Part shown: one piece after another, positions 3,659-42,138 of the stretch
Position numbering within the stretch: position 1 is the first letter of the stretch
Layout of the letters: every line of letters begins with the position of its first letter
NCBI GenBank assembly: GCA_010015805.1
Contig: ML978124.1
Span: forward strand, 1,674,001-1,738,000
DNA length: 64,000 nt
Source of the DNA: Rhizodiscina lignyota
Lineage: Eukaryota
Reading direction: 5' to 3'
The notes under the pieces: generated by a model
Databases searched by the model: none
Told to the model about the DNA's origin: nothing
The model's input: the letters and a program-made list of their open reading frames with translations, nothing else
Made by a program: the position numbers and the translations under genes

Positions 3659-4299
3659 GTTGAATGAGTTTGGTGTGAACTAACACCACTTGGTGAACGC
3701 GCAGTCGCCTTCTTGAAGCTGAATCTACTCCGCGCTAGATCCCAGCAGTTGTGATCATGCAGCGACAGGAGTAGTCCTCCGCGGACGCGTGGGTGACGTG
3801 GTTGAGATAGCTCGGTCGACGATGAATCGAACGGCGGGGCAAGTGATGAGGTGTTTTGGTGGTTGGGAGGTAAAGCGGTGAGGTTTTGGGACGCCTAAGG
3901 GAAAGAGAAGCTCTAGAAGAAGTCACAGTGTGCTCGTGCAACACAAAGCGACTGACTGGAGCAAGCAAGGCTGCACCGTTGAAGGTGAGGATGGTTGGCG
4001 TGTGGCGGGTGATGCAACGCGAAGGAGAATGCCCAGAACTGCTTGTTAGGCTGCGGCGCGGAACTAACCGAACACCCGGGCTTGGCGTTTTTCGGCTTCG
4101 GGAATGGGCCTCTGAGCTTCGCCCGGACAACCATGCATCTTCGCCGAATTGTAGCTTAAAGTGGCGCATAAGATATCACACCTGTTCAGGAAAAAGAGAA
4201 TTCATTCGAAAGTTCATCATAATCGCCTGCTATCCAATCTCCTTCTAGGAGCAATCAACACCCTTCTCTCGCGTTCTCTCCTCCGTTCTGGTCAGATAT

Positions 4300-33369: not shown

Positions 33370-34528
33370 TTAGAACAGGACGTATGCCAGGATGAAGCAG
33401 ATCAGACATAGAGCTGCCACAATCTGCACTGGTACGCCTGCTGGAGCTTGCTGCACCTGCTGAGCAAGACCACCTTTCTCGGAAGTGGTGGCGCCCGTCT
33501 CCGTCTTTCTTTGCCGAAGCACATTCTGTTCCGCAAGCTGCTTCTTCAATTGTTCGATTTGGCGCTGGGCTGCAGCGAGCTGTTCCTTCAGCTCATTGGT
33601 ACTCGTCGGAACGGCGGCTGCGGCGCTTCGTGCGGTCGACTGGACAGTGGCAGCAGCTCCTGCAGCGGCGCCAGATACGGTGTCTGCGACTTTCCTTGTT
33701 CGATCCGTTGTTTCGGACCTGTCGGTGCCGGTTGGCGTGAAAGCCGCCATCGACGGCGAAGCCTGCGACGGAGTAGACTCTGCATGATTGACGCCATTCA
33801 CTTGCTTCTTAGGTGTCGAGGTAGCCTCGCCATCAGCGGGGAGGAAGTTTACGCGGATCTTCCTCTCTGATATGGATGACTTGTTCGTTTGTTCGATTCC
33901 TTGCCACTGTTTATCTGTAAGCAATCATGTATCTGGCCGAAGCCATTCTTCATCTGCATGGGCTGTTTTGCATACGATCGTAGAGATGCTGCCTGAGTCC
34001 TTGTCGGCTGGGATTGGAACGGACTGAACGAGGAACTTGTCTTTGCACTTCGCGTCTAACGGCGGATCTTCTCGCATAGCCTGGAGGAGCACTGCAGGTT
34101 CGTAAGTTCAAAGCAAGACTGCATTGAACCACAACTGACCTTGTACTTCCACTGTGTCCCCCGCCTCAATTTTGCCGGAGTTTGGCCTGACGCAATACCT
34201 ATGAGACGAACGTGAGAATCCAAGTGGCGTGATTGGAGGGACGATGGGGCCGCGCGTACTGTTTAGGAGCTGTGGTCTTGACCTGGAGAGAAGAGATGTA
34301 TTAGAACAAGTATCCGTAACCTCTCAAAACACAGCATTGTTGTGGATTGTTGTTCCTCACCTTGAACGCAACAGGATCCGAGTGGGTGTTCTTGAGCCTC
34401 AACGTTTGCGACACCTCCTGGGTGAAGGGTCCTAATATAGGTTAGCCCATAATTGCAATATATGCCTTGTCTTCTGTAGTAACCGTACGCTTGAAGCCGA
34501 GCTCCTGGGGGTCTAATTCGACCGACAT
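33370..34528 (-). CDS. SCS2: VAP/Scs2 ER membrane protein (MSP domain plus C-terminal TM)
   Basis: Spliced MSVELDPQELGFK|RPFT..VAFK|VKTTAPK|QYCVRPNSG..CKDKFLVQS, a coiled coil, and TM GVPVQIVAALCLICFILAYVLF. Confidence 0.93.
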
Positions 34529-35204: not shown

Positions 35205-36194
35205 ATGGCGTCCTCTGATCTGAACATGCTCATCGACATGGGCTTCGACAACGAAAAGGCGTCCCTTGCTATCAAGAAGTCGGGAAACTGTGAGCAGCTT
35301 TCGAGATAGTGAGGCTTGTATGCACTAATATACAGCACAGTACAAGGCGCCATCGACTGGCTCGAGAAGAACCAAGACAAGACCGTCGAAGAAATCAAGG
35401 AGGAAGAGAAGCAGGAAAGCAATGTCTCGATTAGCGCAGCAGACGAGAATGCCCTATCGCTTGTGTGTAACGAGTGCGGCAAGAAGTTCCGTAGCCAGGC
35501 ACAAGCCGAGTTCCACGCTTCCAAAACTGAGCACACCGATTTCTCCGAGTCGACCGAAGAAATTGCGCCTCTCACTGAAGAAGAGAAAGCTGCCAAGCTA
35601 GCAGACCTGCGGGAAAAGTTGGCGGCCAAGCGCGCTGGCCAGAGCGAACAAGACAAGCTTGATAGGAAGAAGAATGAGGAGATTAGACGCAAGGCTACGA
35701 CGGAAGGCAAAGATATCAAGGAAGAGCTTCAGCGAAAGGAGCAGATCAAGGAAGCACAGGCGAAGCGCCGCGAGAAGCAGGCAGACATCGACGCGAGGAA
35801 GGCTGTACTGGCGAAGCTGGAGGCAGATAAACAGGAGCGAAAACGCAAGGCCGAGCTGGAGAAGGCCAAGCGTACTGGCCAAGCCCTGCCAGCGGAGCCT
35901 GTAGCAGCGGCAGCACCGGCCGCTCCGGCCGCTCCCAAGCCTTCTTCGAGCTATACAGAGGCGAGGCTACGCCTGCAAGTTGAGGGAGCGAAGCCGATCA
36001 TGAAGACATATCCGATCGAGACGACTCTCTTTGAGGTTGCGAGCGATGTGGAGAAGGAGGTTCTTGGTGGTGCAGAGGGTGGTGTGAATGGCTTCCAGAT
36101 GACGTTCCCAAAGAAGTCGTTCGATCGATCAGATTTTGGAATGACTATCAAGGAGGCAGGCTGGGTGCCTAGCGCGGCTCTGATTGTACGGTAG
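35205..36194 (+). CDS. UBA, C2H2 and UBX domain protein (UBXN1/SAKS1-like Cdc48 adaptor)
   Basis: MLIDMGF..AIDWLE (UBA), CNECGKKF..HASKTEH, a coiled coil and ARLRLQ..FPKK..PSAALIV (UBX). Confidence 0.9.
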
Positions 36195-36533: not shown

Positions 36534-37196
36534 CTAGTTAGAAAAGGGATCGGTCCTGGTGCCCCACCAGGTGAGGAACAGCGACAAACCGACAGTCTCG
36601 AAGACGCGGGCGACAGCACCGACGGCAACAGTGTCCAAGGGGCGCTTCTCAGTGAGGACTTGGGAGATGAACTGAGCAGACAGTTAGCATTCAGATCAGT
36701 CACTTAAAATTCAAAAGCTATAGAGCTCAAATGCCACTTACCGAAGGAGCCGAGCTAGCGAAGAAGATCAAAGTACCCATGTACGCAGCGCCCTTGTAGC
36801 TGAGCGTGCCAGTAGCGTTCAACAGCGCACCGACGCCATATGTCTGAATAGCAGAACCGACGATCGAGCTGCCCCACGAGGCGGCGGCAGTAGCAGCCTC
36901 CTTGGACCTGAAGAACTCCTCCTTGGTGTTGGCAGCCTGTGCCTGGCGGTAGGTCTCACCGAAGACAGGGGCGAGCACGGCGAGCGAGGCGGCGTGCGTG
37001 AAGACGGTGCCGAGGGCAATTGCGGAGGGCTTGACGGGTGGGAGATCTGGAGAGAGTGCTTGTTAGATTTACCTGAAGCATACGAAGAGATTTCGAACGA
37101 CGACGATGGACTTCAGAATGGCGCAATCGTCCTTTGTTTACGTATTGCGGGGAAGGAGAAGCGAAGGTGGATAGACGTACAGTGCAGAGTCGCCAT
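36534..37196 (-). CDS. Small membrane protein, DUF1761-like
   Basis: MATLH|YLPPVKPSAIALGTVFTH..GAAYMGTLIFFASSAPS|FISQVLTEKRP..LTWWGTRTDPFSN*; two introns; strongly biased codon usage. Confidence 0.75.
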
Positions 37197-38569: not shown

Positions 38570-38586
38570 AAAAAAGGGCAAAAAAA
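38570..38586 (-). terminator. Pol III oligo(T) terminator of the tRNA-Thr gene
   Basis: T7 (38580-38586) starts 6 nt after the discriminator base and is followed by T6 (38570-38575) on the minus strand. Confidence 0.75.
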
Positions 38587-38591
38587 GAAGA

Positions 38592-38723
38592 TGCCCACTG
38601 ACAGAATCGAACTATCGATCTTCTCATTTCGTAACATACGAGTGAGACGCTTTACCACTCTGTTTACAGTTAGTCGGAAATTTTCATATTTAAGATTTTA
38701 GGAGACTTACGAGCCAAGCGGGC
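38592..38723 (-). tRNA. tRNA-Thr(CGT) with two introns: a 51-nt spliceosomal-type intron (38660-38710) and a 9-nt canonical intron (38628-38636)
   Basis: Exons 38711-38723, 38637-38659 and 38592-38627 give GCCCGCT TG GCTC AGTGGTA AAGC G TCTCA CTCGTAA TGAGA AGATC GATAG TTCGATT CTGTC AGTGGGC A (72 nt). Acceptor, D, anticodon and T stems pair; B-box GTTCGATTC. Confidence 0.9.
38660..38710 (-). other. U2-type spliceosomal intron inside the tRNA D-arm (between positions 13 and 14)
   Basis: GTAAGTCTCCTAAAATCTTAAATATGAAAATTTCCGACTAACTGTAAACAG: consensus donor, branch site GACTAAC (38669-38675) and CAG acceptor. Confidence 0.85.
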
Positions 38724-39284
38724 AGAAAACATCAGCTCTCTGAAACTGCATGTTAACTATAAAGACTTGACTAATACTGCACACAGAATTTTTTTGGTCG
38801 ACCCACTTTTACCCATTGCATCCATGGGTAGTCAGGAACATCCTCAGCTGTCTCCAAGGCTACAAAATCTTAGAATCTTCTTTACACCTTACATTTCCTG
38901 AAACCAATTTTCCCCTGACTGACCCTTACCGATGTTTCTAGCTCCTGCTCCGCCCAAGTGGAGAGCCTACCGCTGAAGTGGTACCCAAGTAAGAAATTCG
39001 GAGAAACCTTTTGGGCACATCTTTGGCTACCATTGGCAATTTTAGAGAATCAGAATTATTCTGTCATTGTCTAAACCTCCTCCAATGATGCTTCAGTGAC
39101 TATTGGAAGACTCCAGGGTCCATACAGAGACATAAAGTCGCTCTTTGGGGTGGCTCAATCGTGCTCTGCTTTCGCAATCCCGGTTGCTCCTAGCACACCA
39201 TTTCTGTCAGGGACTGGTAAAGAGAGGGATATCTGATTGATTTGTGCTATGCCGGCGGTAGTGCAGGGCCAAATTGCAGCAAGG

Positions 39285-40541
39285 ATGTGGTGCAGATGGA
39301 GCCGGCTATCAGGGGCTGATGGGCGAAGAATTGGAAGTGAGACGCGACATTGGATTCAGGAGGCTTTGGCCAAACCAAATCCAACATATGTTTCATCCCG
39401 GCGACTCTTCGGTATAGCGCGAAACAACGGAGGATGTCTATTTCGAAGAAGCGAAGAAAGAGCTAGAACGCAATTCATCCCAGCATCAACCGCTCTGGAA
39501 CCTTGCCGCTGGACAACATCATCCGCCCTCACAGGCACTGCTCGAGAACCAAATGTACAACCATACACACCTCCAACAACAGGACTCCTCTCATACCTTC
39601 CGCCGTCAGTCGTCCCATATGCTGAGCTCATTCGCCTCGACAAGCCAACCGGAACATACTATCTCTTTTTCCCATGTCTCTTCAGCACTCTCCTCGCGGC
39701 ACCTCTTGCAACCCCAATCGCTCCACCGCTTACAGTCATTGGGACCACGGCTCTCTTCTTCACCGGGGCGCTCGTCATGCGCGGCGCTGGGTGCACCATC
39801 AACGATCTATGGGACCGCAATCTTGATCCTCATGTAGCGCGAACAAGGCTGAGGCCGATTGCTCGGAAGGCTATAACTCCCTTCAACGGCCTTGTCTTCA
39901 CAGGCGCTCAGCTATTGACCGGATTGGCCGTACTCGTGCAGTTTCCAGTGCAGTGTCTCTACTACGGTATCCCGTCTCTTGCGCTGGTAGCGACATATCC
40001 GCTCGCAAAGCGTGTAACGCACTATCCACAATTTGTTCTCGGGCTCACATTCTCCTGGGGAGCCATTATGGGGTTTCCAGCCCTCGGGGTGGATCTTCTG
40101 TCTAACCAAGCAGCACTGACAGCAGCGGCATGTCTTTACGGTAGCAATATCGCCTGGACAGTGTTGTATGACATGATCTACGCCCACATGGACATCAAAG
40201 ATGACGTCAAGGCTGGTATCAAGAGCATTGCACTAAGGCACGAAAAGAACACCAAGGCTGTATTGAGTGGACTGGCGGTTGTCCAGATTGGCCTGCTTGC
40301 AGCAGCGGGGACTGCCGCTGGCGCAGGACCGATCTTCTTCGTCGGCAGCTGTGGTAGTGCTGCCGTCACGCTGGCAACGATGATATGGAGGGTCAAGCTG
40401 AAAGAGGTTGCGAACTGCTGGTGGTGGTTTAAGTACGGGTGTTGGTTCACGGGTGGAGGTATTGCACTTGGTTTGTTTGGAGACTATATTGCCAAGTGGA
40501 TGGGGGGAAAGGCAGAAAGTCAACAAGTGGAAGAGGGCTGA
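39285..40541 (+). CDS. COQ2: 4-hydroxybenzoate polyprenyltransferase
   Basis: PYAELIRLDKPTG, GAGCTINDLWDRNLD..RTRLRP and YDMIYAHMDIKDD (UbiA Asp-rich motifs), with an Arg/Ser-rich presequence. The start codon is uncertain. Confidence 0.95.
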   Translation: MWCRWSRLSGADGRRIGSETRHWIQEALAKPNPTYVSSRRLFGIARNNGGCLFRRSEERARTQFIPASTALEPCRWTTSSALTGTAREPNVQPYTPPTTGLLSYLPPSVVPYAELIRLDKPTGTYYLFFPCLFSTLLAAPLATPIAPPLTVIGTTALFFTGALVMRGAGCTINDLWDRNLDPHVARTRLRPIARKAITPFNGLVFTGAQLLTGLAVLVQFPVQCLYYGIPSLALVATYPLAKRVTHYPQFVLGLTFSWGAIMGFPALGVDLLSNQAALTAAACLYGSNIAWTVLYDMIYAHMDIKDDVKAGIKSIALRHEKNTKAVLSGLAVVQIGLLAAAGTAAGAGPIFFVGSCGSAAVTLATMIWRVKLKEVANCWWWFKYGCWFTGGGIALGLFGDYIAKWMGGKAESQQVEEG

Positions 40542-40871: not shown

Positions 40872-41633
40872 TCACTTACATCCAGTCATGATCCCCAAGT
40901 GCAGCTGGAAACCGCCACGTTTGTATGTTGGATTCTCCGATGTTGCAATACTAGGTTGAGGAGCGGTGTTTGCCACAGGCCCTTGTTTCTGTTTCTTAGG
41001 TATCAATCGCTTCTGAGGTTTGGTCCGCCAGCTGTCGTCGTGGCCGAACAAATGCGCATGCCCATTCGTTTTTGCAACTGAAGGTATACTGGACTTCGCA
41101 CGAAACTCCAACGCCGTGATCGTTTGCGGCTCTTCAACTACATTCTTATCTGCTGCATCCTCATCTGCTCGCTCCGGCCCATTTAACAGGTCTTCGAAAC
41201 GCTTCTGTGCTATCCGCGCAATCTCTTCTTCGCTCCATTCTCGCCTTGCTATCATCGAATCGATCATTCTTCTCCTAGCGTCGACACCAAGCTCAGTCCG
41301 CACCCATCGCAGCATATCTTCCGGCGACATCCATCCTTTGCTTATCATATGCTCTAGCAGTGCGTCTTCATGCTCTTGCGTTAACGTCCGCCTCCTGCCC
41401 ATTTCCTTGTGCTTCGGCGGTCGCACGGATCCATACATCGCGAGATTCTTCTTCCACTGGCGAATGGTGCGAATCGCTACTCCGGTTTCATTTTGAATCT
41501 CTGTTGTCTTCCGGCCTTGGAAGAGGAGTTTCACGACGCTTGCGACAACAGCGGAGTCGTAGCCATGGGTAGAAGCGTAGGGATCATGATGGGAACATTT
41601 CTTCGACTTTGGGGCTATAGGTGGCATCTGCAT
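40872..41633 (-). CDS. Protein with a Tc1/IS630 transposase-like paired HTH DNA-binding domain and no DDE domain
   Basis: EIQNETGVAIRTIRQWKKNL..GRRRTLT..EDALLE..MLRWVRTELGV..REWS resembles the N-terminus of fungal Tc1/IS630 transposases; it is followed by a low-complexity tail. Confidence 0.7.
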   Translation of the reverse strand: MQMPPIAPKSKKCSHHDPYASTHGYDSAVVASVVKLLFQGRKTTEIQNETGVAIRTIRQWKKNLAMYGSVRPPKHKEMGRRRTLTQEHEDALLEHMISKGWMSPEDMLRWVRTELGVDARRRMIDSMIARREWSEEEIARIAQKRFEDLLNGPERADEDAADKNVVEEPQTITALEFRAKSSIPSVAKTNGHAHLFGHDDSWRTKPQKRLIPKKQKQGPVANTAPQPSIATSENPTYKRGGFQLHLGIMTGCK

Positions 41634-42138
41634 ATCCGACTTAGTATCAAATCTGCCAAAGAAGACCTAGGCATGCTTACCGTTGCAGGAAGATTTGCGA
41701 GAAGATCAATGCGGAGTTGCATGTAAAGGTTGTTCTAAGGTGGAGGCTGTTGCTGTGGACAAGGATCGTGGTGCACCTATTTAGGTTAGTGTTTTCTACC
41801 ATAGCATGTGCATGTCCCTCACATCCTCTGGAATTTTTTCTGATTCCAAACGGTCTGTCTGACAAGAATATTGTTCGAAAAGTGGATTAATTAAAATGAC
41901 CCGGTGAAATTTTTGCTCTATTCTACGTAATTACTTTGCCAGACGAAAGAAGTATACGTTATTCTGTAACGCGTAAGGATTCCAGCTCTCAACATCTGTG
42001 TCGCTTAGTCTCTTAAATTAGCTATTCATTTGACGTATAAAACCTGCATGTGTCTACTGTCTGCATGTGCAGTATAAACATGACTAAAAGAGGGGGAGTA
42101 CTCAAATTTTACAATCGGAATCATTCATATTTACAATA

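Follow-up and report, generated by a model that had tools for sequence, protein, structure and literature searches.

The window analysed in this study is the whole stretch of 64,000 nucleotides (nt) from the wood fungus Rhizodiscina lignyota (contig ML978124.1, positions 1,674,001 to 1,738,000), and its minus strand carries, at 38592-38723, a nuclear transfer RNA (tRNA) gene for threonine with the anticodon CGU, tRNA-Thr(CGU). The gene is composed, in this order, of a 13-nt exon 1, a 51-nt insert, a 23-nt exon 2a, a 9-nt canonical tRNA intron and a 36-nt exon 2b. Judged by its letters, the 51-nt insert carries all the features of a U2-type spliceosomal intron, and the tRNA gene has very probably gained an intron of the spliceosomal type. 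The features of the gene are given below, read from the sequence unless another basis is stated. L001 is a locus of a metagenome contig with a related tRNA gene, and Pol III is RNA polymerase III.

38592..38723, minus strand: whole tRNA-Thr(CGU) gene, 132 nt (sequence; ARAGORN Thr(cgt) after in-silico removal of both inserts)
38757..38763, minus strand: TTTATAG, TATA-like, 35-38 nt upstream of tRNA nt 1; not conserved in L001
38711..38723, minus strand: exon 1, 13 nt, tRNA nt 1-13 with the 3' end GGCTC, containing the acceptor 5' strand, U8, G9 and the D-stem 5' strand; identical to L001:404-416
38711-38716, minus strand: 5' half of the A box, TGGCTC, inside exon 1
38660..38710, minus strand: 51-nt intron of the spliceosomal type between tRNA nt 13 and 14, in the D-loop
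38705-38710, minus strand: donor GTAAGT
38669-38675, minus strand: branch site GACTAAC, with the branch A at 38670 and 10 nt from the branch A to the end of the insert
38660-38662, minus strand: acceptor CAG
38637..38659, minus strand: exon 2a, nt 14-37, starting with AGTGGTAAAGC and containing the D-loop AGTGGTA, the D-stem 3' strand, the anticodon stem 5' strand and A37; identical to L001:417-439
38638-38640, minus strand: anticodon CGT
38628..38636, minus strand: canonical 9-nt tRNA intron TGTTACGAA at 37/38 (sequence, ARAGORN and predicted fold)
38592..38627, minus strand: exon 2b, nt 38-73, containing the anticodon stem 3' strand, the variable loop AGATC, the T arm, the acceptor 3' strand and the discriminator A; five differences from L001, all in the T stem
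38604-38612, minus strand: B box GTTCGATTC, intact
38580..38586, minus strand: run of seven T (T7), a Pol III-type terminator, starting 6 nt past the discriminator base
38570-38575, minus strand: second T run, 6 T

The 51-nt insert at 38660-38710 between tRNA nt 13 and 14, with its GTAAGT donor, its GACTAAC branch site 10 nt from the end and its CAG acceptor, was present as claimed in a preliminary description of this DNA, and the same is true of the acceptor stem (GCCCGCT/AGTGGGC), the anticodon stem (TCTCA/TGAGA) and the T arm (GATAG/CTGTC, with one T.G pair). That description also held that excision of the 51 nt leaves a tRNA of 72 nt. This was wrong: 81 nt remain, owing to an overlooked 9-nt intron at 37/38. 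In the predicted precursor fold, the 9-nt intron (38628-38636) pairs with the anticodon, as is typical of canonical tRNA introns, and with its position it has the features of the endonuclease type. It is an ordinary member of the canonical 37/38 introns, which are removed by endonuclease and ligase (PMC12530127, in excerpt). The 51-nt insert differs from this class: it lies at 13/14 and not at 37/38, it has mRNA splice signals and it has no structural link to the mature domain.

The native sequence gave nothing in ARAGORN under three option sets, one of which allows introns in the anticodon loop. Nothing was found after removal of the 9-nt intron only, and the gene was mis-called after removal of the 51-nt insert only. 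After removal of both inserts, it was identified as tRNA-Thr(cgt). The suggested check of the in-silico spliced sequence with a tRNA finder thus succeeded with both inserts out and failed with the 51 nt alone out. Rfam at gathering thresholds showed no match in the whole window, and in a permissive Rfam search the native gene scored 19.1 bits, below the threshold of 29, as a partial tRNA match over model positions 9-63. The blank result of ARAGORN on the window says little, because default ARAGORN failed likewise on L001, whose tRNA gene is genuine and contains an intron. The window was then searched for a T arm (five paired positions, G53-C61 and a TTCRA-type loop) together with a fully paired 7-bp acceptor stem and U8 within 330 nt, and the tRNA-Thr(CGU) gene was the single place that carried this combination. 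The B-box words at 3824-3832 and 33891-33899 were rejected and are not tRNAs.

After removal of both introns, the gene yields a cloverleaf with the anticodon CGT, and all conserved nucleotides are present by eye, namely U8, A14, G15:C48, G18, G19, A21, U33 and A37, and in the T arm G53, T54, T55, C56, A58 and C61. The mismatch C13.A22 is no sign of decay, because L001 has the same mismatch. The in-silico mature sequence differs from that of L001 at five positions of the T stem, and the three affected pairs stay paired: 49:65 is G-C in the window gene and A-U in L001, 50:64 is A-U and U-A, and 51:63 is U.G and C-G. These are two double changes and one C-to-U change giving G.U. The earlier statement that the exons have not decayed therefore stands, with the conserved nucleotides in place and every T-stem difference pair-preserving. 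In the centroid fold of the precursor, the insert is almost fully unpaired, and the acceptor arm, the anticodon arm and the anticodon-intron helix form. An alternative hairpin, ATCGA/TCGAT, was noticed at 38604-38620 of the minus strand; it belongs to a non-cloverleaf fold that is 2.4 kcal/mol more stable, and L001 has no such competitor.

Metagenome contigs were scanned with a 23-nt word from exon 2a, and one locus, L001, was returned; the same word returned 0 loci in genome contigs and 0 in viral contigs. L001:404-487 is a tRNA-Thr(CGU) gene (Rfam tRNA, 55.4 bits, full-length model). Its 5' half is identical to exon 1 plus exon 2a at 36/36 nt and reads uninterrupted through GGCTC/AGTGG. Compared with this junction, the window gene has an exact GT...AG unit inserted, and no base was lost, added or duplicated. 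The intron gain was thus scarless, because L001 has the same gene uninterrupted at exactly GCTC/AGTGG. The ends of the insert cannot be shifted: exon 1 is followed by G where exon 2 opens with A, and exon 1 closes with C where the insert closes with G. L001 also has a 12-nt intron at 37/38, the same position as the 9-nt intron of the window gene, and the first 9 nt of the 3' trailer (TCTTCTTTT) are common to both genes. The canonical intron of tRNA-Thr(CGU) seems to be ancestral in the group, since it is found at the same place in L001. Beyond the tRNA gene, no sequence shared between L001 and the window was found, so orthology by synteny cannot be claimed.

The splice signals were compared with chance expectation. 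The strict pattern GTAAGT-N(15-45)-CTAAC-N(4-20)-YAG had 1 match on both strands of the 64-kb window, exactly at 38660-38710, where 0.20 were expected, and at least one match anywhere in the shuffled window was seen in 13 of 100 shuffles. Even under a loose definition (GTRNGT, CTRAY 6-35 nt from the end, AG), donor, branch site and acceptor came together in only 1 of the 127,898 51-mers of the window, which is the tRNA insert. Among 2,000,000 random 51-mers of intergenic composition, 3 passed the strict definition and 41 the loose one. Chance is excluded for the insert because the tRNA cloverleaf fixes its ends independently of the splice signals. The insert is in sense orientation relative to the tRNA, and its 5' GTRNGT, CTRAY branch site, 3' YAG and length all agree with U2-type introns. 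The fungal consensus of the donor is GTAAGT or GTATGT.

For comparison, 16 candidate introns of protein genes, which join open reading frames (ORFs) in the window and are predictions only, were used. The length of the insert (51 nt) falls within their range of 47-88 nt (shortest variants), and the distance from the branch A to the intron end is 10 nt in the insert and 10-35 nt in the candidates. The exact hexamer GTAAGT occurs in 3/16 candidates and the combination of GTAAGT, CTAAC and CAG in just 1/16, so that the signals of the insert are stronger than usual. The claim that the insert matches the protein-gene introns of the window in length and style therefore holds for length and not for style, the G+C content being 29% against 40-57% and the signal trio being found in one candidate. 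No other intron-like sequence in the window is as close to the consensus or as AT-rich as the tRNA insert, and the candidate introns mostly have weaker donors and branch sites.

An artefact, either a mis-assembly or an accidental resemblance to a split tRNA, would be in line with the silence of the standard scanners, and nothing else favours it. The splice-signal statistics, the unique combination of T arm and acceptor stem and the 36/36 match of the 5' half to a genuine tRNA all speak against it. In addition, a second, independent contig set contains the same 321 nt without any difference in a single record of 64,323 nt, although it possibly derives from the same reads as the window. This record runs unbroken through the tRNA gene, with no joint seen. 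Contigs of such sets come from 31-mer graphs, and there is a hint here that no other locus shares a 31-mer with the tRNA gene. We regard an artefact as so improbable that it can practically be neglected.

A different proposal is that the spliceosome has no part in removing the insert: the tRNA endonuclease would cut it out at a non-canonical position, as happens in red algae, nucleomorphs and archaea, or the mature RNA would tolerate it. Cyanidioschyzon merolae, nucleomorphs and archaea have introns that depend on a bulge-helix-bulge (BHB) motif and lie at non-canonical positions, the D-loop among them, and those in the D-loops of nuclear tRNA genes of C. merolae are the precedent for this proposal (PMC3978253, in excerpt). 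The likeness is considerable: a nuclear tRNA gene is interrupted in the D arm, an extra processing step is required and standard scanners miss the gene (excerpts of PMC3978253). The BHB motif, as defined in the same excerpts, has a 4-bp helix between two 3-nt bulges at the exon-intron junctions. However, no such motif could be drawn for the 51-nt insert: the 4-bp central helix formed in 0/16 bulge placements at its junctions, the best attempt reached 3/4 pairs at relaxed offsets, and the junctions were unpaired in both the minimum free energy fold and the centroid fold of the precursor. A BHB intron was therefore rejected. The insert also differs from this class by its GT-AG ends, its branch site and its fungal host.

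Folded by itself, the insert reaches -3.5 kcal/mol (z = -0.96), a value equalled or bettered by 33 of 200 shuffles, so a structured element was rejected too. This lack of structure argues against removal without the spliceosome, under which the exact series GTAAGT..GACTAAC..CAG would be an unexplained coincidence. A D-loop of 51 nt would destroy the tRNA elbow, which speaks against a tolerated insert. Both forms of the proposal appear very improbable. A group I or group II intron was rejected because 51 nt is far too short.

Introner-like elements of Dothideomycetes were reportedly described by van der Burgt et al. in 2012. They resemble the present case in belonging to the same fungal class and in representing a recent gain of spliceosomal introns. 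The tRNA-Thr insert differs in being short and unstructured, with no second copy in the window and no target-site duplication relative to L001. No other copy of the insert was found within the window, the best other match being 12 nt. In the second contig set named above (34.2 Mb), searched at 80% likeness, 1 of 15,746 records matched the region, namely the near-identical probable source contig; neither a second copy nor a DNA copy free of the intron came to light, and the reach of that search for short matches (23-68 nt) is uncertain. An introner-like or transposon-derived intron was rejected on the absence of a further copy in the window, of a stable structure and of a target-site duplication at the empty site. 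The class given to the insert in the preliminary description is thus supported by the full set of signals, the sense orientation, the missing BHB motif, the exact empty site and the exons without decay.

The non-coding hosts of spliceosomal introns named in the excerpts of PMC5855946 are U1, U2, U5, U6 and ribosomal RNA (rRNA), and tRNA is not among them. The Pol III-transcribed U6 genes of Schizosaccharomyces pombe and other fungi carry such introns (same excerpts), which means that Pol III transcripts can be spliced in fungi. Like the tRNA-Thr insert, the introns in fungal small nuclear RNA and rRNA genes are short GT-AG introns with consensus signals in non-coding RNA genes. An origin in reverse splicing and reverse transcription is also proposed for them, and U6 shares a further point, a Pol III-transcribed host (PMC5855946, in excerpt). 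The tRNA-Thr case differs from these in that its host is a tRNA and does not belong to the spliceosome's active site, that the insert splits the A box and that the same RNA also has an intron of the endonuclease type. Spliceosomal introns, tRNA introns and the XBP1 intron are presented as three unrelated classes (PMC12530127, 2025, in excerpt). A natural spliceosomal intron in a tRNA gene was not found in the full-text literature searched, with most subscription journals outside its scope; this agrees with the preliminary remark that none has been described. An engineered case is said to exist: Koehrer, Vogel and Domdey (EMBO J, 1990) reportedly provided a yeast tRNA gene with a pre-mRNA intron that was spliced by the mRNA pathway. 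That construct is artificial with the intron reportedly at the anticodon-loop position, whereas the tRNA-Thr case is natural and concerns the D-loop.

The A box is a core element of the Pol III promoter. Its consensus, which we take to be TRGCNNAGTGG, is matched in full by L001. In the window gene the B box is intact and the A box is split by the 51-nt insert, so that the internal promoter is incomplete; the preliminary description had overlooked this split. The architecture is otherwise of the Pol III type, with a B box and a T7 terminator: the T7 run at 38580-38586 lies downstream, and the longest T run inside the gene is 3. Runs of T end Pol III transcription (PMC5855946, in excerpt). The TTTATAG motif is a possible site for TFIIIB and could set the start of transcription even with the A box interrupted.

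The split A box would be irrelevant if the gene were transcribed by RNA polymerase II (Pol II). The transcript would then be capped and spliced co-transcriptionally, and RNase P and RNase Z would release the tRNA. This idea draws on the location of the gene between COQ2 (+) and a DUF1761 gene (-), in the region of their divergent promoters, and on the consensus splice signals; moreover, tRNA-like structures are cut from Pol II transcripts by RNase P and Z, as in the MALAT1 mascRNA. However, a Pol III-type T7 terminator follows shortly after the discriminator base, the B box is intact, and the minus-strand flanks contain no Pfam-matching ORF and no further splice signals. We know of no natural nuclear tRNA that is made through Pol II with RNase P and Z. 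This route is therefore considered unlikely.

We consider it quite conceivable, if somewhat short of probable, that the gene is still functional and that the 51-nt insert would be removed by the spliceosome. Of the 508 Thr codons in the 19 long ORFs of the window, 119 are ACG, so the cell must be able to decode this codon. Our reading, held tentatively, is that this may be a working, possibly the sole, tRNA-Thr(CGU) gene, whose precursor would pass through the spliceosome and then through the tRNA-splicing endonuclease and ligase.

Several observations weigh against this reading. The 51-nt insert separates TGGCTC from AGTGG within the A box. A pseudo A box with 2 mismatches spans the acceptor site and, if used, would start transcription inside the insert. 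The absence of TTTT from the insert was rejected as a sign of Pol III compatibility, TTTT being present in just 4,000/20,000 shuffles. The G+C content lies below that of all 16 candidate introns, and the 5' exon consists of just 13 nt plus the leader. In the in-silico mature sequence, the alternative hairpin of the T region reaches -23.7 kcal/mol and the cloverleaf -21.3 kcal/mol; the best fold of L001 is the cloverleaf. A natural precedent is missing from the literature within the scope given above. The sole relative found, L001, is without the 51-nt intron and not syntenic. The gain may thus be young, and the intact exons may stem from youth and not from selection.

These points lead to the alternative of a recently disabled copy, in which the same scarless insertion left the gene silent or unprocessed and one or more uninterrupted Thr-CGT genes elsewhere do the work. 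The cause would be the split A box, or the poor reach of the spliceosome into a short structured Pol III transcript, or the two together, and the intact look would come solely from the youth of the event. The split A box, the uninterrupted gene of L001, the lack of a natural precedent in the literature searched and the competing fold of the T region are all in keeping with a disabled copy. Filamentous fungi usually have several copies per tRNA gene, which also counts for it. On the other hand, neither the 81 exon nt nor the 17 signal nt show a disabling change, pairing is kept at every T-stem difference from L001 and the terminator is retained. The three splice signals are at full consensus, against 1/16 of the candidate protein-gene introns. 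We regard the disabled copy as a serious possibility, without calling it probable.

If the gene works, the following course can be proposed from its sequence. The most economical origin would be that an excised intron was reverse-spliced into the tRNA transcript, followed by reverse transcription and recombination, with the ancestral 9-nt canonical intron at 37/38 kept through the gain. The same reverse-splicing route has been proposed for U6 and rRNA introns (PMC5855946, in excerpt). Pol III would transcribe the 132-nt gene to the T7 run; the split A box would be made up for by the B box and perhaps by the TATA-like element at -38. With the acceptor, anticodon and T arms then folded, the unstructured insert would remain as an open single-stranded loop. 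The nuclear spliceosome would remove the insert as a lariat and rebuild the D arm (GGCUC/AGUGG), with the 13-nt 5' exon staying tethered via the acceptor stem. Finally, the tRNA-splicing endonuclease and ligase would remove the 9-nt intron. With two intron types in one precursor, this RNA would need both eukaryotic splicing systems.

The tRNA gene lies between the DUF1761 gene (36730-37062, minus strand) and COQ2/UbiA (ORF 39240-40538, plus strand). No Pfam matches were found in the region around the tRNA gene, and about 1.5 kb without Pfam matches separates it from the DUF1761 gene. A further neighbour at 35316-36191 (plus strand) encodes a protein with an OTU1-type zinc finger and a UBX domain. 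Residues 120-433 of the COQ2 ORF, the part that was searched, are 100% identical to an NCBI protein of Rhizodiscina lignyota, and the next best matches, from other Dothideomycetes, are at most 85% identical. This identity supports the preliminary placement of the DNA among the Dothideomycetes. That NCBI COQ2 protein (P0001, 348 aa) aligns to the window from its residue 31 only (39585-40538), and its model skips about 240 nt of the continuous ORF 39240-40538 (plus strand). Homology to a 427-aa Phyllosticta protein begins 12 residues upstream of the start of the P0001 alignment. The annotated in-frame COQ2 intron may therefore be wrong or misplaced. Next to COQ2, a 264-aa ORF at 40875-41666 (minus strand) had sub-threshold matches only to helix-turn-helix families (HTH_Tnp_1 with 19.5 bits against a cutoff of 24.1, MerR_1 and HTH_28). 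This ORF may stem from a transposase or encode a DNA-binding protein.

Textbook accounts keep spliceosomal introns and endonuclease-type tRNA introns apart (PMC12530127, in excerpt). With a spliceosomal intron in a natural tRNA gene, the divide between Pol II with the spliceosome on one side and the tRNA endonuclease on the other would be crossed, and tRNA would extend the short list of non-coding hosts (U1, U2, U5, U6 and rRNA; excerpts of PMC5855946). If our reading is true, a spliceosomal intron would be seen here for the first time in a natural tRNA, and this would be the first known case of an RNA that relies on both nuclear splicing systems. There would also be a hidden class of GT-AG-split tRNA genes missed by scanners. 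Since standard scanners return nothing at this gene, genomes could seem to be without a tRNA that they encode. Even if the copy is dead, it would document an intron gain cleanly: the empty site is known, a target-site duplication is absent and the host RNA is not made by Pol II. A clean gain in such a host would favour reverse splicing into abundant RNAs over a transposon-type gain.

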